Assembly: GCA_028876035.1 (NCBI GenBank)
Contig: JAGWTK010000001.1
Span: 1 to 41,165, forward strand
Length of the DNA stretch: 41,165 bases
Reading direction: 5' to 3'
From: Bacteroidota bacterium
GTDB taxonomy: Bacteria > Bacteroidota > Bacteroidia > Chitinophagales > Chitinophagaceae
Shown here: positions 822 to 30,077 of the stretch, in pieces
How positions within the stretch are numbered: the first letter of the stretch is position 1
How the letters are laid out: every line of letters begins with the position of its first letter
The notes under the pieces: model-generated
The model's input: the letters and a program-made list of their open reading frames with translations, nothing else
Databases searched by the model: none
What the model was told of the DNA's origin: nothing
Program-made: the position numbers and the translations under genes

Positions 822-1388
822 CTAAGTTGCCCAGGCTTTATCGCCTTTTTTGTAGTCGATACAACCCTCGTACTTTCCTGGAACTGCCACATAGCGCAGT
901 GCCTGGGTAGCCCCCTCTTTCGAGGTGAAATAACCGAAGAGGGTGAGCTGTTTCATCATCGTGAAATAGTGCGAAGGATCTTCCTTCTTCTTACTCTTCT
1001 GGTATTCCTTGGCTTCTTTATCGAGGGCTGTCAGGAACTTGGTTCGTTCTTCCGGCGTCGCTTCCATAAATGATTTGCCTGTTTCTTTCTTGCAGGCTTC
1101 GTCCAGTTTGGCAATGCCTTCGTGGAAGACTTTCTGATCGCCCTCTGTGTAGCAATCGTTCACCATCACGGTCATAAACTGGCCCACTTTTGCTGCTTTG
1201 GCACCCGGACTGCTGGTGGTGGGCAGGATAGTGTCCGCCACTTCATCCAGGAAGGCGGTGTCCTGGGCTGTGAATACCGCGCCGCCCACCGTTGGTTCAT
1301 TTTTACACCCGCTGAGCAGCAGTTCGCCGCCGATAACGGCACCGCCCGTAAGCACGGTAATCATTTTGAGAAGCTCTCTTCTGTCCAT
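822..1388 (-). CDS. gluconate 2-dehydrogenase subunit 3 family protein (TAT-signal lipoprotein, putative hitch-hiker small subunit of an FAD dehydrogenase complex)
   Basis: 188 aa. The N-terminus MDRRELLKMITVLTGGAVIGGELLLSGC has a twin-arginine motif plus an LSGC lipobox. It sits 19 nt downstream of the last GMC gene on the same strand. Size and placement are typical of the small subunit of GMC/FAD dehydrogenase complexes. Confidence 0.85.
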   Translation of the reverse strand: MDRRELLKMITVLTGGAVIGGELLLSGCKNEPTVGGAVFTAQDTAFLDEVADTILPTTSSPGAKAAKVGQFMTVMVNDCYTEGDQKVFHEGIAKLDEACKKETGKSFMEATPEERTKFLTALDKEAKEYQKSKKKEDPSHYFTMMKQLTLFGYFTSKEGATQALRYVAVPGKYEGCIDYKKGDKAWAT

Positions 1389-1407
1389 ATGGTTTGTTTT
1401 ATACTGT

Positions 1408-3135
1408 TTACAAGTTACCTTTTTTTAATTCATCCACCGCATGATTGGCGGCCCTTGCGGTGAGCGCCATAAATGTAAGCGATGGATTTTGCGTACCCGT
1501 CGACACCATGCAGGCGCCGTCGGTCACAAACACATTGCTGCAGCTGTGCAACTGGTTCCATTTGTTCAGCAGGGAGGTCTTGGGGTCCTTGCCCATTCTT
1601 ACGCCGCCCATCTCGTGTATATCGTTCCCGGGCCTGCGTCCATTATCGAATGCATTGATATTTTTACATCCGGCTGCTTCCAGCATTTCGGAACCTTGTT
1701 GCAGAAAGTCTTTCAACAGTTTTTCATCATTCGCATCATAGTCCACGTTGGCTACCAGCAAAGGAACACCCCAGTCATCTTTCTTATCCTTACTCAGCTT
1801 AACTTCATTTGATGCTTTCGGAATGGTTTCGCCCTGCATCATCATAAACACATTCCAGTAAGGTGCCGGTTCAGTTAAACTATCCTTCCAGGCGCCGCCG
1901 ATGCTGGCACCTTCCGAAGTATCACCCATGCGACCCCTGCCAGCACTGTAATGTACCATATAACCGCGTAAAAAGTCCATTTCCTGTTTGTAAACATTCC
2001 GGAAATTGGGCATCATCACAGCGGTGGGTCTCCTCCCATAATCAATCTTATCTTCAAAGCCTTCGATACTGGCGTTGATGTTTCCCCGGTAGTTATGGAA
2101 GGCGATATATTTACCCAGCAAGCCGTTATCGTTACCCAGTCCGTTTGGAAAGCGGTTCGACACCGAGTTCAGCAATACCAGGTTACTGTTCAAACATGCT
2201 GCATTCACAAAAATGATCCGGGCATAATACTCGAGCTCCTGTTTGCTGTGGGCATCTATCACCTTTACTCCAATCGCCTTATTTGTTTTCTCATCATACA
2301 TGATCGAATGCACCACGGAATCTGGTCGCAATGTGAGGTTACCCGTTTTGAACGCCCAGGGCAATGTTGACGAGTTGCTGCTGAAATAGCCGCCGAACGG
2401 GCATCCCCGGTAACAGATATTCCTGGCCTGGCACTGCCCGCGGCCCTGCTGCAAATGCACATCATTGGGTTTGGTCAGATGTGCGCACCTGCCCTGCACC
2501 ACATAGCGATCTTTATACTTTGCCAGGATTTTTTCCTGGATATGTTTCTCCGGACAATTCATTTCCCAGGGCGGCAAAAACTCACCATCGGGTAAGGTTT
2601 CTACGCCGTCTTTATTGCCACTAATGCCTGCGAACTTCTCCACATGACTGTACCAGGGTGCCAGGTCTTCGTAACGAATGGGCCAGTCAACCGCGAAACC
2701 ATCTCGGGCCGGACCTTCAAAATCATATTTACTCCAGCGCTGTGTTTGCCGTGCCCAAATCAAAGATTTTCCGCCTACCTGGTAGCCACGAATCCAATCA
2801 AAAGGTTTTTCCTGTATGTAGGGGTGTTCTTTGTCTTTCACGAAAAAATGCTGTGTAGCCTCATCAAACGCATAACAGCTATCAGCAATCGGGTTCTCCT
2901 GCGAAAGTTTTGTCGTGAGCCTTGTGCGATGCGGAAACTCCCAGATATCCATCGTAGTTGTTGGATAATCTTTGATATGCTTTACGTCGCGCCCACGTTC
3001 CAATACCAGGGTCTTCAATCCATGATCACACAATTCTTTGGCCGCCCAGCCGCCGCTGATCCCCGATCCGATCACGATCGCATCGTAGGTATTTTGCGCT
3101 TTTGCGCGGTTGTTGATATGTAACGAATCGGCCAT
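1408..3135 (-). CDS. GMC-family FAD dehydrogenase catalytic subunit, paralog 1 (most divergent)
   Basis: 575 aa. Starts MADSLHINN. Carries the FAD motif YDAIVIGSGISGGWAAKEL, the Cys motif CQARNICYRGCPFGGYF, and the C-terminal GMC region DIHEMGGVRMG...VFVTDGA...ELKKGNL. No signal peptide. Confidence 0.9.
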   Translation of the reverse strand: MADSLHINNRAKAQNTYDAIVIGSGISGGWAAKELCDHGLKTLVLERGRDVKHIKDYPTTTMDIWEFPHRTRLTTKLSQENPIADSCYAFDEATQHFFVKDKEHPYIQEKPFDWIRGYQVGGKSLIWARQTQRWSKYDFEGPARDGFAVDWPIRYEDLAPWYSHVEKFAGISGNKDGVETLPDGEFLPPWEMNCPEKHIQEKILAKYKDRYVVQGRCAHLTKPNDVHLQQGRGQCQARNICYRGCPFGGYFSSNSSTLPWAFKTGNLTLRPDSVVHSIMYDEKTNKAIGVKVIDAHSKQELEYYARIIFVNAACLNSNLVLLNSVSNRFPNGLGNDNGLLGKYIAFHNYRGNINASIEGFEDKIDYGRRPTAVMMPNFRNVYKQEMDFLRGYMVHYSAGRGRMGDTSEGASIGGAWKDSLTEPAPYWNVFMMMQGETIPKASNEVKLSKDKKDDWGVPLLVANVDYDANDEKLLKDFLQQGSEMLEAAGCKNINAFDNGRRPGNDIHEMGGVRMGKDPKTSLLNKWNQLHSCSNVFVTDGACMVSTGTQNPSLTFMALTARAANHAVDELKKGNL

Positions 3136-3219
3136 TGGCTTTTGGCAGTTGGCTTTTGGCTTGTTTCAGTGATTAATTCGTGTCTGGTTGCAAAAGGCTA
3201 ATAGCTAACAGCCAACAGC
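3136..3219. repeat. phase-locked degenerate heptad array (12 units) filling the GMC1/GMC2 spacer
   Basis: tggcttt|tggcagt|tggcttt|tggcttg|tttcagt|gattaat|tcgtgtc|tggttgc|aaaaggc|taatagc|taacagc|caacagc. The outer arms are imperfect reverse complements. Confidence 0.8.
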
Positions 3220-3222
3220 TTT

Positions 3223-4932
3223 TTACAGGTTTCCTTTCTTCAACTCGCTTACCGCAAAATCAGCGGCTCTTGCAGTAAGCGCCATATACGTTATTGATGG
3301 ATTCTGGCAGGCAGATGAAGCCATGCAGGCACCATCGGTGATGAATACATTTTTAGCATCGTGCACCTGGTTGTGGCCATTGAGCACCGATGTTTTTGGA
3401 TCCTTACCCATGCGGGCTGTTCCCATTTCATGGATACAGAAACCGGGTGCCGGCGCAGCGTCGTAGGTTGAAATATTTTTCAAACCAGCTTTCTCCAGCA
3501 TTTCGGCGGCACTGTTCATCATATCCTTGCGCATCGCTTTTTCATTTTCTTTGAACTCGCAGTCGATCACCAGCGTGGGCAGTCCCCATTTGTCTTTTTT
3601 GTTTTTATCGAGCGTTACGGTATTCTCATAATACGGAAGGTGTTCTCCCCAGGAGCCAATTCCGAATGTCCAGTTGCCTGGTTCGGTAAGTGAATCTTTA
3701 TAGGCTGCTCCCAAACCTTCTTCGATAGAAATTCTTCCTCTTGCAGCACCCCCCTGGTAACCAAACCCGCGTACATACTCTTTTTGTCTCGTAGCAGCGC
3801 TGATATTACGAAAGCGGGGAATATAAATTCCATTGGGCCGGCGACCGTAGGTGTATTTATCGGCAAACTCGTCTGACTCACCGTTCGCCCCTACGCCATA
3901 ATGATGATCCATCAGGTTATGTCCTACCTGTCCGCTGCTATTGCCAAACCCATTTGGAAATACATCCGATACTGAGCTTAATAGAATATGCGTTGTTCCG
4001 AGAGTAGATGCATTGATGAAAACTATCTTCGCGTAATACTCTTCGGTCTTCATGGTTTCCGAATCGAGTATGCGAACGCCTTTTGCCTTCTTCGTGTCTT
4101 TATCATACAATACTTCCAGCACAATCGAAAACGGACGCAGTGTTAGGTTACCTGTTTTCCTGGCAGCCGGTAAGGTAGCAGAGTTACTGCTGAAATAACC
4201 ACCAAAGGGGCAACCCTCGTGGCATTTGCTCCTGAACTGACAGGGACCACGTTCACCAAGCCTGGCCGTATGATTCGCAGATCGACCGATGATCATACGC
4301 CGGCCGTCTTTGAAACTTTTTTGAATTCTTTCTGCCACCTGCTTCTCCAGGCAGTTCATTTCCATCGCTGGCAGGTATTTTCCATCGGGCAGTTGCGGCA
4401 AATTCTCAATCGAGCCGCTGATGCCAACAAAGGGTTCTACATAATCATACCAGGGCGCAATGTCCTTGTAACGTATGGGCCAGTCAACACCGTGGCCGTC
4501 TTTTGCATTTGCTTCAAAATCGATATCGCTCCAGCGGTAACACTGGCGGCCCCAGGTTAAGCTTCTTCCGCCTACATGGTTACCCCTTACCCAATCGAAA
4601 GGCTTTACCTGTGTGTAGGGATTTTCTACGTCGTTCACAAAGAAATGCTTCGACACTTCGTTAAAGGCATAGCATTTACTTTGGATCGGACTTTCTTCCT
4701 GCACTTTCTTGCTTAAACTACCATGGTGATCCAATTCCCAGGGGTCTTTGTTAGTTCCTGTATAATCTTTCACATGCACTACATCTCTTCCTCTTTCCAA
4801 TACAAGCGTCTTCAATCCCTTTTCGCAAAGCTCTTTTGCCGCCCAGCCTCCGCTGATGCCGCTGCCAACAACGATCGCATCGTAGGTATTTTGTGTGATG
4901 GCTTTGTTGTTGATATTAAGTGAATCCCCCAT
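3223..4932 (-). CDS. GMC-family FAD dehydrogenase catalytic subunit, paralog 2
   Basis: 569 aa. Starts MGDSLNINN. Carries YDAIVVGSGISGGWAAKEL, CQFRSKCHEGCPFGGYF, and CIHEMGTARMG...VFITDGA...ELKKGNL. No signal peptide. Confidence 0.9.
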   Translation of the reverse strand: MGDSLNINNKAITQNTYDAIVVGSGISGGWAAKELCEKGLKTLVLERGRDVVHVKDYTGTNKDPWELDHHGSLSKKVQEESPIQSKCYAFNEVSKHFFVNDVENPYTQVKPFDWVRGNHVGGRSLTWGRQCYRWSDIDFEANAKDGHGVDWPIRYKDIAPWYDYVEPFVGISGSIENLPQLPDGKYLPAMEMNCLEKQVAERIQKSFKDGRRMIIGRSANHTARLGERGPCQFRSKCHEGCPFGGYFSSNSATLPAARKTGNLTLRPFSIVLEVLYDKDTKKAKGVRILDSETMKTEEYYAKIVFINASTLGTTHILLSSVSDVFPNGFGNSSGQVGHNLMDHHYGVGANGESDEFADKYTYGRRPNGIYIPRFRNISAATRQKEYVRGFGYQGGAARGRISIEEGLGAAYKDSLTEPGNWTFGIGSWGEHLPYYENTVTLDKNKKDKWGLPTLVIDCEFKENEKAMRKDMMNSAAEMLEKAGLKNISTYDAAPAPGFCIHEMGTARMGKDPKTSVLNGHNQVHDAKNVFITDGACMASSACQNPSITYMALTARAADFAVSELKKGNL

Positions 4933-4935
4933 GTT

Positions 4936-5005
4936 TAGTCGATAGTCTTTAGTCCGTAGTAGTTAGTCGTCAGCCTGTAGCTTGCAGCTTGCAGCCTGCG
5001 GCTAC
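4936..5005. repeat. phase-locked degenerate heptad array (10 units) filling the GMC2/GMC3 spacer
   Basis: tagtcga|tagtctt|tagtccg|tagtagt|tagtcgt|cagcctg|tagcttg|cagcttg|cagcctg|cggctac. It starts 4 nt from the GMC2 start codon and overlaps the GMC3 stop codon. Confidence 0.85.
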
Positions 5006-6714
5006 AAATTCCCTTTCTTCAACTCACCCACCGCATAATTCGCCGCCCTTGCCGTGAGCGCCATATAGGTAAGCGAAGGGTTAACGCAGGAGGCGGAGGT
5101 CATGCAGGCACCATCGGTTACAAATACATTTTTTGCATCCCATACCTGGTTGTGTTCATTGAGCACCGATGTTTTTGGATCGCGGCCCATGCGCGCACTG
5201 CCCATTTCGTGGATACCATCGCCGATCTCGTGACCAGTATCACGCGTTTTGATGTCTTTCACACCGGCGGCTTCCAGCATGGCGACTGCTTCGCTAACAA
5301 TATCTTTGCGCATCTTCAGTTCATTTTCCTGCAGCACTGCATCCATTGATAAAATGGGAAGCCCCCACTTATCTTTTCCTGTTTTATCCAAACTGATTTT
5401 ATTCTGGTGGTGCGGCAACACTTCGCCAAAACCACCGATATTCATTGTCCATGCACCAGGCTCCGTGAGCGCATCTTTGAATGCAGCGCCGATCGCCAGT
5501 TCTTCGACTGATCGGTTATAACCTTGTCTGGCTGCACCACCCTGGTAACCAAATCCACGCAGGTAGTCGCGTTTGTCGCCATTGATGTTTACGAACCGGG
5601 GAATATAGATACCGTTTGCGCGGCGACCATAATAGTATTTGTCTTCATAACCCTCTACCATGCCCGATGCACCGAGGTTATAGTGATGGTCCATGATATT
5701 GTGACCCAGTTCCCCGCTGCTGCTCCCTAAACCATCGGGCCAGATATCGGTGGCCGAATTCATCAATACCCAGGCACTGTTAAGGGCAGATGCATTCACG
5801 AAAACAATCTTCGAATAGAATTCGTAGGTCTTGTTGTTCTCTGCATCCATCACTTCTACACCCCTGGCTTTCTTCTTGTCTTTATCATACAGAATTTTCG
5901 ACACGATGCTCCAGGGACGGATAGTGAGATTACCCGTCGCCTTTGCCGCGGGCAAGGTAGAAGATTGCGTACTGAAATACCCGCCGAAGGGACATCCTTC
6001 CCAGCAACGGTTTCTGAACTGGCAATTGGTTCTGCCCTTATGCGGCACCGTTAGATTGGCCACACGGCCGATGATCATGTGTCGTTCGCCTTTCCACTTG
6101 TCTTTTATGCGCGCCGCTACATCCTTCTCCACACAAGTCATGTCCATCGGTGGCAGGAATTGACCATCGGGCAGGTGTTTGATGCCTTCCAGTGAGCCAC
6201 TCACACCAATATGCTTTTCTACATGATCATACCAGGGTGCAATGTCTTTATAACGGATGGGCCAATCGATTGCCCAGCCATCTTTTGCATTGGCTTCAAA
6301 GTCGAGATCACTCCAGCGATAGCTTTGCCTGCCCCATAAAATAGATCGACCACCCAACTGATAAGCGCGCCACCATTTAAAAGGTTTCTCTTCGTAATAA
6401 GGCGCTTCGCTGTCTTTCGCCCAATAGTTGATAATGGGCTCCGACTTACCCCAGGTGCGGGCAATCACCGGGCGATCTTTGAGATCTGCGAGCGGGGTTG
6501 TACCACGATGGGGAAAGTCCCAGGGATCTTTATTAGCCGATGCGTAATCTTTGACGTGCTCAAAATTGCGACCGCGTTCCAGCATCAGGACTTTTAATCC
6601 CTGTTCGCACAATTCTTTCGCTGCCCAACCACCACTGATACCCGAACCGATGACGATCGCATCGTAGGTTTGCTGCGTTGTAGCGCTGTTGTTGATATGG
6701 AGTGTGTCCGACAT
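5002..6714 (-). CDS. GMC-family FAD dehydrogenase catalytic subunit, paralog 3
   Basis: 570 aa. Starts MSDTLHINN. Carries YDAIVIGSGISGGWAAKEL, CQFRNRCWEGCPFGGYF, and GIHEMGSARMG...VFVTDGA...ELKKGNL. No signal peptide. Confidence 0.9.
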   Translation of the reverse strand: MSDTLHINNSATTQQTYDAIVIGSGISGGWAAKELCEQGLKVLMLERGRNFEHVKDYASANKDPWDFPHRGTTPLADLKDRPVIARTWGKSEPIINYWAKDSEAPYYEEKPFKWWRAYQLGGRSILWGRQSYRWSDLDFEANAKDGWAIDWPIRYKDIAPWYDHVEKHIGVSGSLEGIKHLPDGQFLPPMDMTCVEKDVAARIKDKWKGERHMIIGRVANLTVPHKGRTNCQFRNRCWEGCPFGGYFSTQSSTLPAAKATGNLTIRPWSIVSKILYDKDKKKARGVEVMDAENNKTYEFYSKIVFVNASALNSAWVLMNSATDIWPDGLGSSSGELGHNIMDHHYNLGASGMVEGYEDKYYYGRRANGIYIPRFVNINGDKRDYLRGFGYQGGAARQGYNRSVEELAIGAAFKDALTEPGAWTMNIGGFGEVLPHHQNKISLDKTGKDKWGLPILSMDAVLQENELKMRKDIVSEAVAMLEAAGVKDIKTRDTGHEIGDGIHEMGSARMGRDPKTSVLNEHNQVWDAKNVFVTDGACMTSASCVNPSLTYMALTARAANYAVGELKKGNL

Positions 6715-6812
6715 TGGCTTTTGGCTATTGGCTGTTAGCTTGTTTACGTTACAAATTCCTGTTTTTGTCTCCTACGGGCTAAGAGCCAACAGCTAATAGC
6801 CAACTGCTTCCT
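6715..6812. repeat. phase-locked degenerate heptad array (14 units) filling the GMC3/GMC4 spacer
   Basis: tggcttt|tggctat|tggctgt|tagcttg|...|gctaaga|gccaaca|gctaata|gccaact|gcttcct. The TGGCT-type arm and the AGCCA-type arm are imperfectly complementary. Confidence 0.8.
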
Positions 6813-8629
6813 CACAAATTGCCTTTCTTCAACTCTTCCACCGCATGATTCGCCGCTCTTGCAGTGAAAGCCATATAAGTAAGTGAAGGATTAACGCAAG
6901 AGGCAGAGGTCATGAATGATCCATCGGTAACGAATACATTCGGTGCATCCCATACCTGGTTCCATTTGTTGAGGACCGATGTTTTTGGATCGGCACCCAT
7001 ACGTGCAGAACCCATTTCGTGAATACCGCGACCAAGCGTACCATCACCTTCACGGCCTTTCACGTCTTTAACACCGGCGGCTTCCAGCATTTCGATGGCA
7101 TCGGCCACCATATCCTTGCGCATTTTCTTTTCGTTCTCTTTGTATTCAACATCCATCGCGAGTACAGGCAGACCCCATTTGTCGAGACGTTGTTTACCAT
7201 TTTTATCGGGAACCGGTTTGGTACCCAGGTCGAGACCAGTCACCGGATCTTTGTAAGGTTCAGTCTTATCGCCGTACAATTCTTTGTCGATGTACACGCG
7301 GTTCTCGTGGTATGGTAATGTTTCACCAAAGCCACCGATATTCATCGTCCAGGAGCCCGGTTCTGTGAGTGCATCTTTGAAAGCACCACCAATCACCAGT
7401 TCTTCCAGTGAACGGTTATAACCTTGCCGGCTCGCACCGCCCTGGTAGCCAAAGCCACGCAGGTAATCGCGTTTATCACCAAAGAAATTGCGGTAACGCG
7501 GAATGTAAATGCCATTCGCACGGCGACCGAAATAGTATTTGTCTTCGTATCCTTCCACACGACCCGCAGCGCCTACACCGAGGTGGTGGTCCATGATATT
7601 GTGACCGAGCTCACCACTGCTGCTACCCAATCCATCGGGCCAGATATCGGTAGCGGATTGCATCAGTATCCAGGCGCTGTTGAGGGTAGAGGCGTTCAGG
7701 AAAATGATCTTTGCGGTATAGGTATATGTCTTGTTGGTTTCTGCATCGAGTACTTCTACACCAGTTGCTTTTTTCTTGTCTTTGTCGTAGAGGATTTTAG
7801 TTACAATGCTCCAGGGGCGCAGCTTCAGGTTGCCCGTTGCCATGGCGGCCGGAAGGGTAGAAGACTGGGTGCTGAAATACGCACCGAACGGACAACCCAG
7901 CCAGCACTTGTTGCGGAACTGGCAATTGGTTCTTCCCTCATGCGGCACCGTTAGATTGGCGGTACGACCGATGATCATCGAACGATCCTTAAATTTTTCT
8001 TTGACACGCTTTGCTACATCCTTTTCTACGCAGTTCATATCCATCGGCGGAAGAAACTGTCCGTCGGGCAATTGCGGTAAGCCTTCTTTGGATCCACTGA
8101 TCCCGGCGAATTTCTCTGCATAATCGTACCAGGGTGCAATTTCTTTATAGCGAACGGGCCAGTCGATCCCAACACCTTCTTTGGCATTTGCTTCAAAGTC
8201 CCAGTCACTCAGGCGATAGCTCTGGCGACCCCACATGAGCGAACGACCGCCTACATGGTAACCCCGGAACCAGTCGAACCGTTTGATTTCGGTATACGGA
8301 CTGTCCTTATCGCTGCACCAGTAGTCGAGGTTGGTTTCATTGAGCGGATAATCGCGTTTCAACACGGGATAATCATGGATCATCTCCTGCGTACGTCCGC
8401 CCCTATGCGGGAACTCCCAGGGATCTTTGGTGGCATTCACGTAATCCTTCACGTGTTTGATATCTCGTCCGCGTTCCAGCATCAATACCTTCAGGCCTTT
8501 TTCGGTCAGCTCTTTTGCAGCCCAGCCGCCGCTGATACCGGATCCGATAACGATGGCATCGAAGCTGGTTTGCTCGGCAGCGTTGGTATTGATGTTAACT
8601 GGTTTCTGTAGGGAAGTATCTCCTGGCAT
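6812..8629 (-). CDS. GMC-family FAD dehydrogenase catalytic subunit, paralog 4 (long form with ~30-aa insertion)
   Basis: 605 aa. Carries FDAIVIGSGISGGWAAKEL, CQFRNKCWLGCPFGAYF and GIHEMGSARMG...VFVTDGS. It has an extra segment, ELYGDKTEPYKDPVTGLDLGTKPVPDKNGKQRL (about nt 7187-7282), that paralogs 1-3 lack. Confidence 0.9.
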   Translation of the reverse strand: MPGDTSLQKPVNINTNAAEQTSFDAIVIGSGISGGWAAKELTEKGLKVLMLERGRDIKHVKDYVNATKDPWEFPHRGGRTQEMIHDYPVLKRDYPLNETNLDYWCSDKDSPYTEIKRFDWFRGYHVGGRSLMWGRQSYRLSDWDFEANAKEGVGIDWPVRYKEIAPWYDYAEKFAGISGSKEGLPQLPDGQFLPPMDMNCVEKDVAKRVKEKFKDRSMIIGRTANLTVPHEGRTNCQFRNKCWLGCPFGAYFSTQSSTLPAAMATGNLKLRPWSIVTKILYDKDKKKATGVEVLDAETNKTYTYTAKIIFLNASTLNSAWILMQSATDIWPDGLGSSSGELGHNIMDHHLGVGAAGRVEGYEDKYYFGRRANGIYIPRYRNFFGDKRDYLRGFGYQGGASRQGYNRSLEELVIGGAFKDALTEPGSWTMNIGGFGETLPYHENRVYIDKELYGDKTEPYKDPVTGLDLGTKPVPDKNGKQRLDKWGLPVLAMDVEYKENEKKMRKDMVADAIEMLEAAGVKDVKGREGDGTLGRGIHEMGSARMGADPKTSVLNKWNQVWDAPNVFVTDGSFMTSASCVNPSLTYMAFTARAANHAVEELKKGNL

Positions 8630-8650
8630 AGTTATATTCTTTTAATCGTT

Positions 8651-8727
8651 ATTGCTATTGGCTATTGGCCATTGGCAATTAGCTATTGGCAAAAAGCTAA
8701 CAGCCAAATGCTAAAAGCTCACGGCTA
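8651..8727. repeat. phase-locked degenerate heptad array (11 units) in the GMC4/GMC5 spacer
   Basis: attgcta|ttggcta|ttggcca|ttggcaa|ttagcta|ttggcaa|aaagcta|acagcca|aatgcta|aaagctc|acggcta. It ends on the GMC5 stop codon. Confidence 0.85.
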
Positions 8728-10500
8728 CAAGTTTTGTTTCTTCAGCTCCTCCACTGCATAGTTCGCTGCACGTGCGGTAAACGCCATGTAGGTGAGGGAC
8801 GGGTTTTGGCAAGCAGCGGATGTCATGAAGGAACCATCGGTAACAAATACGTTGGGTGCATCCCACACCTGGTTCCATTTGTTCACTACAGATGTTTTTG
8901 GATCCGCACCCATGCGGGCAGAACCCATTTCATGGATACCACGGCCCAGGGTACCGTCGCCATCTGCACCGCGTACATTCTTCACGCCGGCAACAGTGAG
9001 CATCTCAATGGCATCATTGAGCATATCCTTGCGCATCTTCTTCTCGTTCTCTTTATATTCAACATCGAAGGCGAGTACAGGAAGTCCCCATTTATCGAGC
9101 CGCTGTTTTCCGTTCTTATCAGGAACAGGACGGCTTCCGAGATCCATACCCGTCACCGGGTCTTTGAATGGTTCGGTTTTATCGCCGTACAAGGTTTTGT
9201 CGAGATAGATGCGATTCTCATGGTAAGGCAATGTTTCACCGAAACCACCCATGCCCATACTCCATCCGCCGGGTTCTGTGAGTGCATCTTTGAACGCGCC
9301 GCCAATGTTGAATTCAGCAATGTCTTTGGACCAGCCTTCGCGGCTCGCACCGCCCTGGTAACCGAAGCCACGCAGGTAATCGCGTTTATCACCAAAGAGA
9401 TTGCGGTAGCGCGGGATATAAATGCCATTCGCGCGGCGACCGAAATAATATTTATCATCATAACCATCCACCGTACCACTGGCCCACACACCGAGGTGGT
9501 GATCCATGATATTATGACCGAGCTCGCCGCTGCTGCTACCCAAACCGTCGGGCCAGATATCGGTGGCCGATTGCATCAGTATCCAGGCGCTGTTCAGGGT
9601 AGAGGCGTTAAGGAATATGATCTTCGCGTTGTAGGTATAGGTCTTGTTATTCTCTGCGTCGAGCACTTCCACGCCCGTTGCTTTTTTCTTATCCTTATCG
9701 TAGAGAATTTTTGTAACGATGCTCCAGGGCCGAAGCGTAAGGTTGCCGGTTTTTTCTGCGGCGGGATAGGTAGAGGATTGTGTGCTGAAATAGGCACCAA
9801 ACGGACAACCCAGCCAGCATTTGTCGCGGTACTGGCAATTGGTTCTTCCCTCATGCGGCACCGTTAGATTGGCACTTCGTCCCATGATGATGCGGCGGAA
9901 CATTTTCGGATCGTAGTGGGCATTCATCCGTGCGGCCACATCTTTTTCCACGCAGTTCATTTCCATCGGCGGAAGAAATTGTCCGTCGGGCAACTGCGGC
10001 ATGCCCTCTTTTGAACCATTGATGCCGGCGAATTTCTCCACATAATCATACCAGGGCGCAATGTCTTTGTATCGGACGGGCCAGTCGATCGCCACGCCTT
10101 CTTTTGCATTCGCTTCAAAATCGAAATCACTCCAGCGATAGCTCTGTCGGCCCCACATCAGCGAACGGCCGCCTACATGGTAGCCACGGAACCAGTCGAA
10201 CCGTTTCACTTCGGTATACGGACTGTCTTTATCACTGCACCAATAGTCGAGATTGGTTTCATTGAGCGGGTAATCGCGTTTGAGTACCGGGTAATTTTTG
10301 ATCATTTCCTGCGTGCGCCCGCCCCGGTGCGGAAAATCCCAGGGATCCTTGTTCGCATTCACATAATCCTTTACGTGCTTAATGTCCCGGCCTCTTTCCA
10401 GCAACAGGGTTTTGAGGCCTTTCTCGCACAGTTCTTTTGCTGCCCATCCGCCACTGATTCCAGAGCCGATGACAATCGCGTCGTAGGTGTTATCTGCCAT
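8725..10500 (-). CDS. GMC-family FAD dehydrogenase catalytic subunit, paralog 5 (long form with insertion)
   Basis: The ORF extends to 10566, but its first 22 codons (MYLVLCTSYRAFQILNTRYYLT) translate the heptad repeat array. The ATG at 10500 gives MADNTYDAIVIGSGISGGWAAKEL, like the other paralogs. Also carries CQYRDKCWLGCPFGAYF and the same insertion as paralog 4 (TLYGDKTEPFKDPVTGMDLGSRPVPDKNGKQRL). Confidence 0.85.
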   Translation of the reverse strand: MADNTYDAIVIGSGISGGWAAKELCEKGLKTLLLERGRDIKHVKDYVNANKDPWDFPHRGGRTQEMIKNYPVLKRDYPLNETNLDYWCSDKDSPYTEVKRFDWFRGYHVGGRSLMWGRQSYRWSDFDFEANAKEGVAIDWPVRYKDIAPWYDYVEKFAGINGSKEGMPQLPDGQFLPPMEMNCVEKDVAARMNAHYDPKMFRRIIMGRSANLTVPHEGRTNCQYRDKCWLGCPFGAYFSTQSSTYPAAEKTGNLTLRPWSIVTKILYDKDKKKATGVEVLDAENNKTYTYNAKIIFLNASTLNSAWILMQSATDIWPDGLGSSSGELGHNIMDHHLGVWASGTVDGYDDKYYFGRRANGIYIPRYRNLFGDKRDYLRGFGYQGGASREGWSKDIAEFNIGGAFKDALTEPGGWSMGMGGFGETLPYHENRIYLDKTLYGDKTEPFKDPVTGMDLGSRPVPDKNGKQRLDKWGLPVLAFDVEYKENEKKMRKDMLNDAIEMLTVAGVKNVRGADGDGTLGRGIHEMGSARMGADPKTSVVNKWNQVWDAPNVFVTDGSFMTSAACQNPSLTYMAFTARAANYAVEELKKQNL

Positions 10501-10508
10501 AGTTAAAT

Positions 10509-10627
10509 AGTATCTGGTATTTAGTATCTGGAATGCCCGGTACGAAGTACAAAGTACCAAGTACAAAGACAGGAATTAAGTAGTACCAGGGGTTCTGCTA
10601 ATAGCTAACGGCCAAAAGCCAATTGCT
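10509..10627. repeat. phase-locked degenerate heptad array (17 units) in the GMC5/TIM-barrel spacer
   Basis: agtatct|ggtattt|agtatct|ggaatgc|ccggtac|gaagtac|aaagtac|caagtac|aaagaca|ggaatta|agtagta|ccagggg|ttctgct|aatagct|aacggcc|aaaagcc|aattgct. Confidence 0.8.
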
Positions 10628-10632
10628 TGTAC

Positions 10633-11526
10633 TCACACATCGCAGATCTTCACCGCCTGTTTCAGGGCAGCGATCTTTGCTTTATTGTCTTCGCCGGTAG
10701 GAATGAATTCCTGGGCAACATAGCCTTTGAAGCCGGTGTCGACGATGGCCTGCATGATGGCAGGGTAGTTGAGTTCTTGTTTTTCGTTGAGTTCATGACG
10801 ACCGGGTACTCCCGCCGTATGGTAGTGACCGATGTATGGGTGGTATTCCCGAATAGTGTGTATCACATCCCCTTCGTCGATCTGCATGTGATAGATATCG
10901 TACAGCAGTTTGAAGTTTTCTGAACCCGTGCGTTTGCAGAGTTCTACCCCCCAGGCCGTGCGATCGCACATATAATCCTTGTGATCAACTTTGCTGTTAA
11001 GCAATTCCATCTGGATCGTAATGCCGTTCTTTTCCGCCAGCGGAAGAATGCGTTTCAATCCTTCTGCGCAGTTTTTCAGTCCGGTCTCATCATCCATACC
11101 CCGGCGGTTACCACTGAAGCAGATCACATCTTTATAGCCGGCTTTTACCATCAGCGGTATCACTTCTTCGTAATCTTTGACCAGCTGGTCGTGGAAGTCT
11201 TTGTTATTGAAACCATCCACCAGGCTCACTTTACCGCCGTGGTAGCACATCGAGCTATAGATGCCGTATTGCTGCAGCATCGGCCAGTCTTTAGGTGCTA
11301 TTAAATCGATTGCACTAAATCCTATTTTTTTAACGTGCTTACACAGTTCTTCCAGGGAGATGAAGTTATAACACCACTGGCAAACCGAATGGTTAATGTT
11401 TCCTTTGAATTTCACGTTGGCGGCGTTTTCGCCCGCATAGGCAGCAGTCATGGAGGAGGCGCCCAGGGCGGCCGTTCCTGCAAGCATGGTCTTGAGTGCC
11501 TCGCGACGGTTATGTTTTGCTGGCAT
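10633..11526 (-). CDS. TAT-exported hydroxypyruvate-isomerase-like / xylose-isomerase-like TIM-barrel protein
   Basis: 297 aa. Twin-arginine signal MPAKHNRREALKTMLAGTAALGASSMTAAYA. The segment LLYDIYHMQIDEGDVIHTIREYHPYIGHYHTAGVPGRHE is typical of the Hyi/TIM-barrel family. Confidence 0.85.
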   Translation of the reverse strand: MPAKHNRREALKTMLAGTAALGASSMTAAYAGENAANVKFKGNINHSVCQWCYNFISLEELCKHVKKIGFSAIDLIAPKDWPMLQQYGIYSSMCYHGGKVSLVDGFNNKDFHDQLVKDYEEVIPLMVKAGYKDVICFSGNRRGMDDETGLKNCAEGLKRILPLAEKNGITIQMELLNSKVDHKDYMCDRTAWGVELCKRTGSENFKLLYDIYHMQIDEGDVIHTIREYHPYIGHYHTAGVPGRHELNEKQELNYPAIMQAIVDTGFKGYVAQEFIPTGEDNKAKIAALKQAVKICDV

Positions 11527-11562
11527 ATCGGAGTTGAAATTTACGGCAAGACTTTTATTAAA

Positions 11563-12786
11563 CTACACCGCTGGTGCAACTGATTTTTTTCTTTTGTAAA
11601 AGAAAAGGATGGCAAAAGCGACAGTAAGCACCAACGGGATCATTAAAGTAACATTAATAATTGCCTGACCTGCTTCTGCGGGTGTTTTGCTTGCCTGGAG
11701 TCTATCATAATAGCCACCCATAAAAATCAGGTAAAGCGATACGGCGAACATGCCCGCACCACCCATAAAATTAAGTCCAACCGCACCCGTTTCCGGTAAG
11801 TTTTCGGAGACGAATCCCAGCATGGTAGGCCAGAAATAACACACGCCCATTCCAAAGAAAATGGCGCCAACAAAGAGCATGTTACCGGTTGAATGACCGA
11901 GCAGGTACAAACCTATCGAAGCAAGGATAGCCGATGTTAACAGCACGCCGGCAGCCGACAAGCGGTGTACGATGGGACCTGCAAAAGCACGACCAATCAC
12001 CATAATACCTGTTTCAATGGTGAGCAGCAGCAATGCGTTATCAGTCACATTCTTCAGCAATACATCGATCCACTGACCAGTAAACAATTCAGTGATAGCC
12101 GTTCCAAGCATCAGCACAATCATCACAAGAAACAGCGGTTTCAGCAATGCCTTGTACATGTCGCCCGAGCTGATACCACTGGCTACTCTTTCTGTTACCG
12201 GGAATGCAAGCTTGTAGAACAGGTAACCGTATACCACGGTCGGAATCAACATCAATCCCACCAGGAAACGCCAGTTAGTAATAATTTTCGTAGCACCATC
12301 TGCCCCCATCGCTGTTTGGCCGAAGAAAGAAACGATCAATGTACCAATCACGATTCCACCAGGGAACCAAAGATGAAAATGGTTCAGCTTGGTGGTTTTA
12401 TTGGTTGTGTATAAACTAGCCACGAGTGGATTACAAGCTGCTTCTACCAGGCCATTGCCCATACCTATTAATAAAGTGGAAATGAACAAAGGCCAGAAAC
12501 CTTGCGCCGTAATCGTAAGTACAATACCCAGTGCATGAAATAGAAACGCCCCCACCAGCAATTTTTTCATTCCAATGATATCAACTACAAGTCCGCCTAT
12601 CACGATCGCCAGGGGGAAACCCCAGAAAGCCGTGCTGGTAATAACGCCAATTTGTTCCTGGTTGAGTGAAAACTGCTCTTTCCAGGTGGTAAGCAAACCC
12701 GCCCGGATACCAAAAGAAAGGGAAGTAACAAGTAATGAGGTACAGCTGGCAAAAAAGAGTTTGTCGCGCTGAATGGTAGCTTGCAT
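11563..12786 (-). CDS. MFS sugar transporter (fucose/glucose-galactose permease-like)
   Basis: 407 aa and highly hydrophobic, with about 12 predicted TM segments. It is the first gene of the minus-strand operon, 36 nt upstream of the TIM-barrel gene. Confidence 0.8.
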   Translation of the reverse strand: MQATIQRDKLFFASCTSLLVTSLSFGIRAGLLTTWKEQFSLNQEQIGVITSTAFWGFPLAIVIGGLVVDIIGMKKLLVGAFLFHALGIVLTITAQGFWPLFISTLLIGMGNGLVEAACNPLVASLYTTNKTTKLNHFHLWFPGGIVIGTLIVSFFGQTAMGADGATKIITNWRFLVGLMLIPTVVYGYLFYKLAFPVTERVASGISSGDMYKALLKPLFLVMIVLMLGTAITELFTGQWIDVLLKNVTDNALLLLTIETGIMVIGRAFAGPIVHRLSAAGVLLTSAILASIGLYLLGHSTGNMLFVGAIFFGMGVCYFWPTMLGFVSENLPETGAVGLNFMGGAGMFAVSLYLIFMGGYYDRLQASKTPAEAGQAIINVTLMIPLVLTVAFAILFFYKRKKSVAPAV

Positions 12787-12973: not shown

Positions 12974-14140
12974 ATGAACAGAAAGTTAAGAATGGGCATG
13001 GTGGGCGGCGGTAAAGATGCGTTTATCGGCGCTATTCACCGGTTGGCTGCCAATATGGACGGATTGATTGAATTATCCTGCGGTGCACTTAGTATCAACC
13101 CGGAGATTGCCCGCGAATCGGGCAAAATGCTTTTTCTGCCGGAAGATCGCACCTACCTCACTTTTGATGAGATGATTAAAAAGGAAGCAGCGCTGCCGGC
13201 CGATAAGCGGATGGATTTCGTGACGATCGTTACGCCCAACTTTGCACACTTCGCCCCGGCCATGATGGCGCTTGACCATGGCTTTCATGTAGTGATCGAA
13301 AAGCCCATCACATTTACCTACGATGAGGCCAAACAACTCAAGAAAAAACTCGAAGAAACCGGACTGGTACTTTGCTTAACACATACTTATTCGGGCTATC
13401 CCCTGGTAAAACAGGCCAAACAAATGGTGAAAGACGGTGTCCTTGGTAAAATCCGGAAGGTTTGGGTTGAATATCCGCAAGGCTGGCTCAGCAAAATGAG
13501 CGAACGGGAAGGGAATGCACAAGCTGCCTGGCGCACCGACCCCAAGAAAAGCGGTAAAGCCGGCGCCATGGGCGATATCGGTACTCACGCTGCCCACCTC
13601 GCCGAATATATCACCGGTTCAAAAATCACGCACCTTTGCGCAGACCTTAATATTATGGTGCCCGGCCGTGCACTCGATGACGACGGCAACGTGTTGCTGA
13701 AGTTCGACAATGGCGCTGCGGGCGTGCTGATGGCCAGCCAGGTGGCAGCGGGTGAAGAAAACGCCCTGAAAATTCGCGTATATGGCGAAAAAGGCGGTAT
13801 CGAATGGGCACAGCATGAACCCAATACTTTATTGGTAAAATGGCTGGATCAACCCACACAGATCCTGCGCGCGGGCGGCAACTACGGCGATCGACTCAGT
13901 AAATACGCGATTCACAACAGCCGCACACCGGGCGGTCACCCCGAAGGTTACCTCGAAGCTTTTGGTAATATCTACCGCAACTTCGCCCTTACCCTCGGTG
14001 CACGCATCGACGGTACCAAACCCAGCGAAGAAATGCTCGACTTCCCCGGCGTAGAAGACGGACTGCGTGGCATGGCATTCATCGATAATGTGGTGGCATC
14101 GGCACAGAGCGATAAGAAGTGGCACGAGTACCAATCTTGA
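12974..14140 (+). CDS. Gfo/Idh/MocA family oxidoreductase (cytoplasmic, no signal peptide)
   Basis: 388 aa. N-terminal Rossmann segment LRMGMVGGGKDAFIGAIH and the family EKP motif (HVVIEKPITF). Confidence 0.9.
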   Translation: MNRKLRMGMVGGGKDAFIGAIHRLAANMDGLIELSCGALSINPEIARESGKMLFLPEDRTYLTFDEMIKKEAALPADKRMDFVTIVTPNFAHFAPAMMALDHGFHVVIEKPITFTYDEAKQLKKKLEETGLVLCLTHTYSGYPLVKQAKQMVKDGVLGKIRKVWVEYPQGWLSKMSEREGNAQAAWRTDPKKSGKAGAMGDIGTHAAHLAEYITGSKITHLCADLNIMVPGRALDDDGNVLLKFDNGAAGVLMASQVAAGEENALKIRVYGEKGGIEWAQHEPNTLLVKWLDQPTQILRAGGNYGDRLSKYAIHNSRTPGGHPEGYLEAFGNIYRNFALTLGARIDGTKPSEEMLDFPGVEDGLRGMAFIDNVVASAQSDKKWHEYQS

Positions 14141-14301
14141 GTTGTAAGTCGTAAGTAATAAGTTATAAGTCGTTTCGGCTATCAGGGGCGAGCGGTAAGA
14201 GGTTAGGGGCAATGGACGGGAAAGTGTTGAATTTTTACTTTTGACTTTCCGGTCTTTGTACTTTGTACTTGCTACTTTGTACCACATACCAAATACTAAA
14301 T
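14141..14301. repeat. phase-locked degenerate heptad array (23 units)
   Basis: It starts right after the Gfo stop codon: gttgtaa|gtcgtaa|gtaataa|gttataa|gtcgttt|cggctat|...|tttttac|ttttgac|tttccgg|tctttgt|actttgt|acttgct|actttgt|accacat|accaaat|actaaat. One phase is kept across 161 nt. Confidence 0.8.
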
Positions 14302-14361
14302 ACGTCTGCAGTGGCCGAAGACGAACTCATAAAAAAACACGCCCAGAATGCTCTTGATGCG

Positions 14362-15039
14362 ATGACGCATCCGGGCAAGAAGTGGACGCACAAACTAAAA
14401 GACATTTTACAGGAGATCCTGATCATTGTCTTTGCAGTGAGCGTTTCCATCTGGCTGCACGGTTGGTCGGAGGATCGAAAGGACCGGCGGGAAGAAAAAG
14501 AGTTCTTTGCAGGACTAAAACAGGATATCGAAGCCGATCTCACAGAAATGGAGAACGATCGCGCTGCATTGCGCCTGGTGCAGCAACATTGTATGTATTA
14601 TGGAATGGTGGGCAAGGGAAGACCTTTTCAGATAGATAGTGTGATGAACTATGCCTATATTTTCTTTACGCAGGCACAGATCAACCCGCGTATCAGCCGC
14701 TTTGAAGCATTGAAAGGCAGCGGACGCCTGGACATCATTGAGGACAAAAAGCTGTTGTATAACATTATCGACCTCTACCAGAAAATCTTTCCAACGATCT
14801 ACCGTTACAACCAGTCGTTCAACGAACTTAACAGCAACAAAATTGACCCCTACCTGGGCGATATGCTGCAGATTGACACCAGCGGCAATTTTCTGAACTC
14901 GATCGATATCCTTAAAACCTCAAGAATGCGCCTGCTGCTCAACCAGCTTTATTCCAATGCCGCCACCTGCGAAGGGGCGTATACCAAAGGCATTGAGAAG
15001 AGTAAAGAGATACTGGCTGGGATGAAGGAAAGTCATTAG
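14362..15039 (+). CDS. hypothetical N-terminally membrane-anchored protein (DUF6090-like architecture)
   Basis: The ORF runs from 14263, but codons 1-13 translate a heptad array. ATG 14362 gives MTHPGKKWTHKLKDILQEILIIVFAVSVSIWLHGW, a short basic N-terminus followed by one TM. GTG 14311 is an alternative start. There is no recognisable catalytic motif. Confidence 0.5.
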   Translation: MTHPGKKWTHKLKDILQEILIIVFAVSVSIWLHGWSEDRKDRREEKEFFAGLKQDIEADLTEMENDRAALRLVQQHCMYYGMVGKGRPFQIDSVMNYAYIFFTQAQINPRISRFEALKGSGRLDIIEDKKLLYNIIDLYQKIFPTIYRYNQSFNELNSNKIDPYLGDMLQIDTSGNFLNSIDILKTSRMRLLLNQLYSNAATCEGAYTKGIEKSKEILAGMKESH

Positions 15040-15178
15040 TCGTTAGTCGATAGTCTTTAGTCCAGAGTCATTAGTCCATAACCGGTAATCGATATTGAAC
15101 CATCATTAGTAAAAATCAAAAGCTAATGGCTAATGGCCAACAGCTAAGAGCCAATAGCCAATACCTAACAGCTAAAAA
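15032..15178. repeat. phase-locked degenerate heptad array (21 units)
   Basis: gtcatta|gtcgtta|gtcgata|gtcttta|gtccaga|gtcatta|gtccata|accggta|atcgata|...|ctaatgg|ctaatgg|ccaacag|ctaagag|ccaatag|ccaatac|ctaacag|ctaaaaa. It begins in the last codons of the upstream gene and ends 1 nt before ATG 15180. Confidence 0.85.
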
Positions 15179-15179
15179 T

Positions 15180-16299: not shown

Positions 16300-16710
16300 A
16301 TGTTTATGTTCAAGAAGTTTTTGGCTATTGCGGTAATTGTGGCCGCCTGTTATTCCTGCAACAACAATGAAACAAAATCTGCGGGTGGTGAAACAAAAGA
16401 CACAACAGCAGCAAAACCTGCCGAGCCTGCCGTAGCAGCAAATCCGGAAGCAGAAAAAGGAAAAGAGCTGATCGCGGGCGACAACTGTTTGACCTGTCAC
16501 AAAATCGACGAAGCTGTAACAGGACCGGCTTACCGCGATGTAGCCAACAAATACAGCAACGACGACGAAACCGTTACCAAACTCGCCAACAAAATCATCA
16601 AAGGCGGTTCGGGTGTATGGGGACAAATCGCGATGACGCCGCACGATACCCTGTCGGTTGACAACGCCAGGCTGATGGTGAAATACATTCTTTCGCTGAA
16701 AAACAAGTAA
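16300..16710 (+). CDS. class I c-type cytochrome (mono-heme), lipoprotein
   Basis: 136 aa. Signal/lipobox MFMFKKFLAIAVIVAACYSC, a single CLTCH heme-binding motif, and a downstream GQIAMTPH candidate Met ligand. Confidence 0.85.
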   Translation: MFMFKKFLAIAVIVAACYSCNNNETKSAGGETKDTTAAKPAEPAVAANPEAEKGKELIAGDNCLTCHKIDEAVTGPAYRDVANKYSNDDETVTKLANKIIKGGSGVWGQIAMTPHDTLSVDNARLMVKYILSLKNK

Positions 16711-19867: not shown

Positions 19868-20016
19868 GGGATTTGGATTAAGCTACCAAAACGCACGGAG
19901 GCAAAAATAATTATGCGGTCAATCGAAAATCGGCCGCCATTCGTCGAAGCGCACAGCCTTCGATTCCATCGCAGATCAACAAAAATGGATATATTGAAGC
20001 ACCTAATTGCTTGTAC

Positions 20017-27869: not shown

Positions 27870-27948
27870 AAATAGACGTTGGTGGGTTGATATAAAAAGA
27901 GACACCGAAGGGTGCCTCTCAAATTAGGTAAAATTTTCCTGTAGCAGC

Positions 27949-28719: not shown

Positions 28720-28739
28720 ATCCTTCGTTTTCTTTTCGG

Positions 28740-30071: not shown

Positions 30072-30077
30072 AGCAGG

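Follow-up and report, generated by a model that had tools for sequence, protein, structure and literature searches.

Hitch-hiking through the twin-arginine translocation (TAT) pathway is normally described with one signal-bearing partner per cargo. Gluconate 2-dehydrogenase, whose genes are arranged 1:1:1, contains a three-haem cytochrome and acts on C2 of gluconate, and the fructose dehydrogenase (FDH) of Gluconobacter japonicus (PDB 7W2J, 8K6K), a proteobacterial membrane complex made of one catalytic, one small and one multihaem cytochrome subunit, oxidises free fructose. In the FAD-glucose dehydrogenase of Burkholderia cepacia (BcGDH), a gamma-alpha-beta complex (PDB 6A2U), the alpha subunit carries no signal, the small TAT subunit is needed for folding and secretion, and electrons are delivered to a c-type cytochrome (PMC6719666). 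The LacABC-type glucoside 3-dehydrogenases are periplasmic and cytochrome-c-dependent, their genes are clustered with those of DUF1080 proteins and homologues of BT2156-2159, and in Caulobacter and Pedobacter they play an important part in growth on glycosides such as lactose and salicin (PMC9007349, PMC8121099); the glucoside 3-dehydrogenase of Rhizobium radiobacter uses a monoheme cytochrome c (PMC9915066). Here we analyse a stretch of 41,165 nucleotides (contig JAGWTK010000001.1, positions 1 to 41,165; hereafter the window) from a soil or freshwater Chitinophagaceae bacterium, in which five consecutive genes for catalytic subunits of this kind are followed by a single gene for a TAT-exported small subunit. 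LacABC-type systems are also found in Bacteroidota and have been described with one catalytic subunit, as opposed to the five old subfamilies present here; our search of the literature found papers on the pathway but no description of arrays with several catalytic subunits.

The locus is a unit of eight consecutive genes on the minus strand, in the order MFS - TIM - G5 - G4 - G3 - G2 - G1 - small subunit (table of open reading frames, ORFs), with gaps of 19-132 nt between them. From first to last they are:

11563-12786, minus: MFS permease, first gene of the unit (Pfam MFS_1; syntenic)
10633-11526, minus: xylose-isomerase-like TIM barrel with a TAT signal, N-terminus MPAKHNRREALK... (Pfam AP_endonuc_2; syntenic in most of the related loci surveyed below)
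8725-10500, minus: G5, GMC/FAD catalytic subunit, 591 aa, core clade, TIM-proximal (Pfam, tree, motifs)
6812-8629, minus: G4, GMC/FAD catalytic subunit, 605 aa, core clade, with an insertion of ~30 aa at residues 451-480 (Pfam, PDB match, tree, motifs)
5002-6714, minus: G3, GMC/FAD catalytic subunit, 570 aa, G3 clade (Pfam, tree, motifs)
3223-4932, minus: G2, GMC/FAD catalytic subunit, 569 aa, G2 clade (Pfam, tree, motifs)
1408-3135, minus: G1, GMC/FAD catalytic subunit, 575 aa, G1 clade, the most divergent copy (Pfam, tree, motifs, PDB match 7W2J_A)
822-1388, minus: small subunit, 188 aa, PF13618 (Pfam E=9e-42; sole copy in the window)

An earlier reading of this DNA made from the letters alone (the sequence-only reading) had placed five collinear GMC paralogues at these positions, headed on the same strand by the permease and the TAT-exported TIM barrel, and ORFs and Pfam searches agree with it on both counts.

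We hold, with moderate confidence, that the best reading of this unit is a 3-ketoglycoside locus in which the catalytic subunit has been expanded and the export escort is shared. According to this proposal each GMC protein, having no signal, would be assembled in the cytoplasm as an FAD and 3Fe-4S dehydrogenase and would bind the single PF13618 subunit, the folded complex would cross the membrane on the twin-arginine signal of the latter, and the lipidated cysteine of the small subunit would then tether the complex to the periplasm-facing membrane. Once there, the enzyme would oxidise a glycoside, most likely at C3, and electrons would pass from FAD through the 3Fe-4S cluster to a monoheme cytochrome c lipoprotein encoded in a divergent operon. 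The 3-keto product would be processed by DUF1080 hydrolases and TAT-exported TIM-barrel enzymes, and the sugars would be imported by the MFS permease and reduced by cytoplasmic Gfo/Idh/MocA enzymes. The five paralogues would correspond to old, separately conserved subfamilies differing in substrate range, with one generic small subunit for all of them. We infer from sequence that each paralogue pairs physically with the small subunit, that the cytochrome is the acceptor and that the substrate ranges are distinct.

The nature of the catalytic subunits is the firmest part of this proposal. Each of the five contains both GMC_oxred_N and GMC_oxred_C (Pfam), and in a search of PDB sequences the best match among solved structures was the large subunit of fructose dehydrogenase, 7W2J (G1, E=3e-36 over the full length; G4, 2.5e-32), the alpha subunit of BcGDH (6A2U_B) being matched as well (G4, E=1e-29; G1, 5e-21). 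All five copies have a loop C-Q-x-R-x-x-C-x-x-G-C-P-F-G, that is, a C-x5-C-x3-C triad, which aligns with the cysteines of FDH and has the spacing of Cys212, Cys218 and Cys222 of BcGDH, the residues that hold its 3Fe-4S cluster (PMC6719666). The catalytic His also aligns with that of FDH and is kept in every copy, and the dinucleotide-binding motif GSGISGG is invariant among them. The triad, GSGISGG, the histidine of IHEMG and the asparagine of NPS are shared by all five copies and by at least 95% of the 123 homologues taken from related loci. The array shares with BcGDH the GMC fold, FAD, the C-x5-C-x3-C loop (the surface 3Fe-4S cluster in BcGDH), a catalytic subunit free of signals and a small TAT subunit. 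On the basis of the PDB matches and the conserved Cys triad, GSGISGG, IHEMG His and NPS Asn, the assignment of G1-G5 to the family of FAD/3Fe-4S dehydrogenase complexes is secure at the level of sequence, as the sequence-only reading had suggested when it compared them with hetero-oligomeric FAD dehydrogenases. The motif (Y/F)DAIV(I/V)GSGISGGWAAKEL and the C-terminal ELKK(G/Q)NL that it had pointed out do occur in all five copies; the N-terminus M[AGS]D[ST]L[HN]INN, which it had attributed to four of them, is found in three (G1-G3).

Export signals are distributed as the proposal would have it. The small subunit matches the whole PF13618 profile (gluconate 2-dehydrogenase subunit 3 family; 143.1 bits against a gathering cut-off of 23.4, profile positions 2-135 of 135), and is in that sense related to subunit 3 of gluconate 2-dehydrogenase, which belongs to the same Pfam family. 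Its N-terminus, MDRRELLKMITVLTGGAVIGGELLLSGC (MDRRELLK...LLLSGC), combines a twin-arginine motif with a hydrophobic stretch and a lipobox, R3, R4 and C28 being invariant among 18 homologues (71-87% identity). Conservation along the protein is strongest in the C-terminal third (YFTMMKQL...YKKGDKAWA). The GMC proteins have no possible signal peptide in any of the five cases, their ORFs already being given with the longest N-termini and the FAD-binding fold beginning at residue 6-23; the idea of hidden GMC signal peptides was rejected for these same reasons, the ORFs not being extendable and the Rossmann fold lying within 23 residues. The sole upstream extension possible among the GMC ORFs is that of G5, from a TTG (10566) located 22 codons upstream and inside repeat DNA. 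Its orthologues in two related loci (L002 and L003) begin with MADNN and MPDNN and lack this extension, so that translation likely starts at the ATG at 10500. The view that the small subunit bears the only export signal of the array, the GMC proteins having none, is therefore confirmed, also when upstream in-frame starts are considered. We propose by analogy that the small subunit escorts the GMC subunits during export and anchors them to the membrane, a proposal that derives from the logic of the signal peptides and from the namesake family of PF13618 and not from homology to a proven case.

The arrangement was followed in other genomes by scanning one genome per species with the small-subunit profile; 80 loci were taken with 10-kb flanks, nearly all of them from Chitinophagaceae or other Sphingobacteriia/Chitinophagia. 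The cassette MFS - TIM - GMC(n) - small is conserved across these loci. Exactly one small-subunit gene is present in each (80/80), none of them having a second one within 10 kb, and it stands directly after a GMC gene in nearly all the loci long enough to tell. The number of copies was counted in the 58 of the 80 loci, all from other species, in which the TIM gene delimits the array: 35 have a single GMC gene, 14 have two (one of which, L034, really has three copies, one fragmented), five have three, three have four and one (L075) has five. Loci with three copies include those of Ferruginibacter paludis CECT 8366 (L006), Hydrotalea flava CCUG 51397 (L017) and OZ257130.1 (L028). Two or more GMC genes with a single small subunit are thus found in 23/58 bounded loci (~40%). 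The nearest relative of the window, L002, carries all five types, ordered as in the window, and L038 (JAXLUI010000001.1) shows five copies as far as the edge of the fetched DNA, which brings the further arrays of five or more to two to three (L075, L002, L038). The array described here is the upper end of a copy-number continuum, and the n:1 layout is recurrent in public genomes; the notion that the architecture might be a one-off has to be abandoned. In L034 the middle GMC copy of three (6274-8009) is split into several frames, with a centre of low identity; it is the sole sign of decay among all arrays, and reflects either a decaying gene or long-read frameshift errors in a metagenome-assembled genome.

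These counts also bear on the possibility that several GMC paralogues and the small subunit make up one hetero-oligomeric particle. The presence of the genes in one operon with one small subunit would be compatible with such a mixed complex, and fructose dehydrogenase (7W2J) does form higher-order assemblies. We consider it very improbable, given that genomes differ freely in the number of copies (1 to 5) and differ in their order as well, which is incompatible with a fixed stoichiometry, and that loci with a single copy are the majority, so that one catalytic subunit suffices.

A neighbour-joining tree of the 123 GMC copies from related loci resolved four groups, a core clade and the G1, G2 and G3 clades. 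The core clade brings together the copies of single-copy loci, G4 and G5, and is always TIM-proximal, G5 occupying the slot also taken by the GMC gene of single-copy loci. The G1, G2 and G3 clades also hold copies from Hydrotalea, Flavihumibacter, Ferruginibacter, Terrimonas and Sphingobacteriales genomes. Since these clades span genera, and since the order and number of GMC types differ between genomes, the G1-G3 types are old and have been gained or lost repeatedly. Pairwise amino acid identity among the five copies ranges from 50 to 86%, with G4 and G5 the closest pair (86%), G1 the furthest copy (50-55%) and values of 50-73% outside the G4/G5 pair. The sequence-only reading had seen by eye that G4 and G5 were the most alike and G1 the most divergent, in which it was right, and had deduced a serial duplication from it, which accounts for only part of the history: the split between G4 and G5 is the only comparatively recent one, yet older than the divergence of the window from L002 and L003, and G1, G2 and G3 belong to old cross-genus clades found in varying order.

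All five copies are under strong purifying selection. Compared with their L002 orthologues, G2-G5 show dN of 0.09-0.21 and dN/dS of 0.044-0.077 (G2, 0.077; G3, 0.044; G4, 0.045; G5, 0.044), and the small subunit a dN/dS of 0.033; for G1 dN is 0.112 and dS is saturated, so that no ratio can be given. Pseudogenisation was considered as an explanation for part of the array and rejected, with the five ORFs intact and dN/dS below 0.08 in the four copies with an estimate; the silent or decaying copies that would have spoken against the sequence-only reading were not seen.

An alternative is that the five copies are equivalent, either amplified for output or simply tolerated, with the same substrate range. 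Catalytic and cofactor motifs are identical in all copies and G4 and G5 are 86% identical, which would suit such a dosage effect or redundancy. Nevertheless, identity outside this pair drops to the values given above and synonymous sites are saturated between paralogues, G1, G2 and G3 types are maintained as distinct clades across genera, and divergence is not evenly spread: conservation among the five is highest in the FAD, Fe-S and C-terminal catalytic segments and lowest in the centre (residues ~300-480) and in an N-terminal stretch (61-120). In addition, more enzyme without more escort would not lift periplasmic activity. We therefore regard equivalence of the copies as improbable. The pattern of conservation fits differing substrate ranges on a common redox core, and the expanded array probably widens the range of glycosides that the cell oxidises.

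Whether a single small subunit can be used by such different enzymes was addressed by comparing small subunits with the type of their GMC neighbour. The neighbouring gene belongs to type G1 in the window, to G3 in Ferruginibacter, to G2 in L013, L030 and L038, and to the core type in single-copy loci. In the small-subunit tree, sequences cluster according to taxon, irrespective of which GMC type lies beside them. A generic escort is best supported by the fact that a single small-subunit lineage keeps its place in the operon whichever of the four catalytic types accompanies it, and the comparative data to this extent favour the promiscuous escort for five catalysts that had been suggested from the sequence alone; the physical sharing itself stays at the level of a proposal. 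It is also conceivable, although unlikely in our view, that sharing is partial, the small subunit escorting only part of the five (G1 next to it, for instance, or G4/G5 of the ancestral core type) and the others pairing with PF13618 proteins encoded elsewhere. The count of small subunits covers the 41-kb window, in L047, L052, L031 and L066 a small subunit is paired with a G2-type or G3-type enzyme and no other, and one assembly (JADKJC01) has two separate cassettes of GMC plus small subunit (L031, L060), all of which would suit partial sharing. On the opposite side, a second small-subunit gene was found within 10 kb in 0/80 loci, small subunits located beside G1, G2, G3 and core types form no type-specific clades, and membership of an operon normally means functional linkage.

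A separate cassette made of a G3-type GMC gene, a small subunit and ThuA was observed beside or in place of MFS-TIM-GMC-small (L031/L060 of JADKJC01; L052, Pedobacter cryoconitis). Such cassettes show that the small subunit can also sit in dedicated 1:1 pairs.

The pathway in which the array would take part is indicated by a plus-strand operon, placed head-to-head with the MFS gene and syntenic in more than 30 related loci:

12974-14140, plus: gene 1, cytoplasmic Gfo/Idh/MocA oxidoreductase (Pfam; weak match to NCBIfam levoglucosan dehydrogenase; syntenic in 48 loci)
15126-16235, plus: second TIM-barrel enzyme (Pfam AP_endonuc_2, E=2e-34; syntenic in 42 loci)
16300-16710, plus: monoheme c-type cytochrome lipoprotein, 136 aa, CLTCH (CxxCH scan, Pfam Cytochrom_C E=9e-10; syntenic in 32 loci)
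16764-17480, plus: DUF1080 / 3-keto-disaccharide hydrolase with a Sec signal peptide (Pfam PF06439, E=6e-54; syntenic in 31 loci)
17491-18258, plus: ThuA-family protein, trehalose utilisation (Pfam PF06283, E=4e-79)

The sequence-only reading had left out this operon, whose cytochrome c and DUF1080 genes identify the pathway. The second TIM barrel probably begins near 15180, as codons 1-18 of the 15126 ORF fall in a heptad repeat (15122-15175). The TIM barrel at 10633-11526 is a candidate periplasmic 3-keto-sugar isomerase, epimerase or eliminase; the PDB proteins related to it are ketose 3-epimerases, and it weakly matches a 3-keto-D-glucoside 4-epimerase. As in the clusters of Caulobacter crescentus LacABC, its Pedobacter counterpart and the R. 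radiobacter enzyme, the dehydrogenase genes are here accompanied by DUF1080, epimerase-like TIM-barrel and Gfo/Idh/MocA genes and a transporter (PMC9007349, PMC8121099, PMC9915066), a likeness drawn from published descriptions and gene context. DUF1080 hydrolase, IolE-like TIM barrel and Gfo/Idh/MocA homologues of the kind encoded by BT2156-BT2160 of Bacteroides thetaiotaomicron are likewise all in the window, with the difference that B. thetaiotaomicron lacks an FAD/cytochrome-c-dependent dehydrogenase of the LacABC type and carries out the oxidation with NAD-type enzymes (PMC8121099). Because the published association matches this gene context, we interpret the array as a set of five glycoside dehydrogenases, probably 3-dehydrogenases, that would feed a 3-ketoglycoside pathway, and the assignment to that pathway (LacABC / glucoside-3-dehydrogenase type) is well supported by the gene context.

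No ORF with CxxCH, and no gene for a three-haem membrane cytochrome subunit, was found inside the GMC operon, and the window encodes only two haem proteins, the monoheme cytochrome c (16300-16710) and, further away, a peroxidase with two haems (35440-36495). We propose the former as the electron acceptor of the dehydrogenases; a monoheme lipoprotein encoded in a divergent operon would here take the place of the three-heme membrane cytochrome of BcGDH. The TIM barrels with their RR signals, the DUF1080 protein with its Sec signal and the cytochrome c with its lipoprotein signal all point to a periplasmic chemistry. This speaks against an alternative in which the GMC enzymes would be cytoplasmic and the small TAT lipoprotein would have an unrelated periplasmic role. 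The absence of signal peptides from the GMC proteins would suit that alternative, and homology of PF13618 to a proven hitch-hiker was not detected. We nonetheless judge it highly unlikely: the small-subunit gene is present in 80/80 loci, right after a GMC gene in nearly all the informative ones, the TIM barrel, DUF1080 protein and cytochrome c are all exported, a c-type cytochrome acceptor functions only outside the cytoplasm, and the homologous complexes are periplasmic (PMC6719666, PMC9007349).

Several observations weigh against the shared-escort 3-ketoglycoside proposal, or against parts of it. If one escort is used per exported enzyme, five catalytic genes against one escort gene, where BcGDH has one, create a real difficulty of stoichiometry, which would imply either that the small subunit is made in excess or that it caps the total of periplasmic enzyme. 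The small subunit claimed to be single is so in the window (tblastn) and in every related locus, a count that for this genome extends over 41 kb, and further small-subunit genes may be present elsewhere; the two 1:1 cassettes of JADKJC01 mentioned above point in the same direction. Binding between GMC proteins and small subunit is deduced by comparing sequences. The position of His105, which binds FAD covalently in BcGDH, is occupied in the alignment by I, T, L, M and M in G1-G5, respectively, and the cysteines of the inter-subunit disulfide of BcGDH are not conserved; FAD is probably bound non-covalently in G1-G5. Among solved structures, the closest relatives act on fructose and glucose and not on the C3 of glycosides; the glycoside substrates and the C3 regiochemistry are predictions.

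The small subunit itself contributes further points of this kind. Searches of PDB sequences with the single sequence and then with an 18-sequence profile gave no meaningful match, the profile recognising neither the small subunit of fructose dehydrogenase nor any other small subunit. The AlphaFold2 model obtained with 18 homologues had a mean pLDDT of 58, falling below 50 in the C-terminal third; a Foldseek search of PDB with this poor model returned only noise (E>3). The sequence that we take to be that of BcGDH gamma, the only hitch-hiker of known structure, whose C-terminus agrees with the residues named in PMC6719666, scores as PF12318, and its comparison with the profile of our PF13618 lipoprotein gave an hhalign probability of 0.5%, with the signal peptides alone aligning. 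Homology between the small subunit and BcGDH gamma was consequently dropped, and the pairing with a hitch-hiker as in Burkholderia, which the sequence-only reading had taken as its model, becomes an analogy in role between proteins of different Pfam families, which also differ in that the one studied here is a lipoprotein. Lastly, the promoter and terminator scans described next are simple consensus searches.

Transcription of the array would end at a strong terminator, as had been noted from the sequence, situated at 765-735 past the small-subunit gene; the RNA of 720-821 folds with -35 kcal/mol (z = -3.8). Three of the gaps between GMC genes contain hairpins built from 7-nt repeats (TTGGCTN), of which there are 38 in the window versus 12 expected, and whose inverted arms fold on each other:

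735-765, minus: intrinsic terminator after the small-subunit gene, 12-bp stem with 7 G-C pairs followed by TTTTTTT
3136-3222, minus: G2-G1 gap with inverted TTGGCTN arms, the 3' arm finishing at the G1 start codon
6715-6811, minus: G4-G3 gap with a strong heptad-repeat hairpin, the 3' arm finishing at the G3 start codon
8630-8724, minus: G5-G4 gap with a heptad-repeat hairpin right after the G5 stop codon

Simple consensus scans detected no terminator-like site in the intergenic gaps and no Bacteroidota -7 motif (TAnnTTTG) on the minus strand in the gaps between GMC genes, the overall counts of this motif and those of a sigma-70 promoter scan being at chance level; no known RNA family was found across the window (Rfam). 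One terminator and gaps free of motifs are consistent with, and weakly suggest, a single transcript running from ~12800 to 735.

Heptad-repeat sites are located at 3135-3215, 6714-6803, 8658-8721, 10597-10622, 15122-15175 and 41147-41158. The hairpin of the G4-G3 gap is the strongest (-32.9 kcal/mol, z = -4.2; 0/200 shuffles as stable). As they have no T-tract, the heptad hairpins are not classic terminators. The same hairpin design, based on other heptads (CAGGTTG, GGCGAGA, GATTGGC), was found in the gaps of the unrelated five-copy array L075 (2686-2781, 4435-4532, 6192-6268, 7943-8033 and 9711-9834). We speculate that the intergenic hairpins may set the relative stability or translation, and with it the output, of each cistron.

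Other repeats were observed in and around such gaps. In the four-copy array L013, the gaps (1935-2216, 3894-4197, 5923-6106, 7811-8132, 9837-10000) contain a common repeated element, of up to ~200-300 nt in the larger ones and with terminal inverted repeats CTTGCGTCGCACTCTTGTAC ... GTACAAGAGTGCGACGCAAG, which has a REP- or MITE-like look. In the window, 10517-10575 and 14247-14303 form an inverted pair of GTACAAA/GTACTTT heptad blocks, 3.7 kb apart and flanking TIM-MFS-Gfo, with 37 nt at 86% complementarity and a further pair of 19-nt arms (10517-10535 / 14285-14303). These blocks yield spurious N-terminal extensions that resemble each other in the G5 ORF (TTG 10566) and in the ORF at 14263-15039.

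The rest of the window includes a second 3-keto-sugar cluster on the minus strand (27105-30971) and other genes of related function:

27105-27905 and 27949-28719, minus: two DUF1080 hydrolases (Pfam)
28740-30071, minus: Gfo/Idh/MocA protein with a TAT-like signal SRKKFLQQ (KK replacing RR)
30078-30971, minus: TAT TIM barrel
22759-24162: Gfo
20011-20937: TIM

Altogether there are two Gfo/Idh/MocA proteins with signal-like N-termini in which KK replaces RR, and two further TAT TIM barrels, and from its gene content the whole window appears to be an island of periplasmic keto-sugar chemistry. A Nudix/NrtR-AraR-type regulator with a winged-helix DNA-binding domain (20954-21673, minus) is a candidate regulator of the island. 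An MbnP-family protein (36492-37205) adjoins the di-haem cytochrome c peroxidase / MauG-like protein at 35440-36495 on the minus strand; pairs of MbnP and MauG-like proteins are known from copper-acquisition (MbnPH) systems, and this one looks unrelated to the dehydrogenase array. An 882-aa protein encoded at 37260-39908 (minus) is a GH9 cellulase with an N-terminal Ig-like domain and a polysaccharide deacetylase domain. At 39915-41102 (minus), on the edge of the window, lies a transposase/integrase (rve core and HTH domains), which may be the reason for the contig ending there. Finally, a PKD-domain protein (33209-35086, plus) has a CHU_C type IX secretion signal, which confirms a Bacteroidota host with a type IX secretion system (T9SS).

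All the parts of the proposed system lie within 18 kb. If the shared-escort proposal is true, the use of one escort by up to five enzymes would show how tolerant the recognition of hitch-hikers can be, and would offer a conserved docking surface to be mapped. The five subfamilies constitute a ready panel of FAD/3Fe-4S dehydrogenases, probably differing in glycoside preference, of interest for direct-electron-transfer biosensors and for the regioselective oxidation of glycosides. A broader version, for and against which we see about equal weight, is that the PF13618 TAT lipoprotein acts as a universal export adaptor and anchor for at least four anciently diverged subfamilies of FAD/3Fe-4S dehydrogenases, in a modular, multi-cargo form of hitch-hiking where intergenic hairpins may tune the output of each cartridge. 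Were the adaptor universal, catalytic cartridges, from one to five or more, could be gained or lost without duplicating the export or electron-transfer parts. The array suggests that Chitinophagaceae broaden their oxidative, non-hydrolytic breakdown of glycosides by multiplying only the subunit that recognises the substrate.

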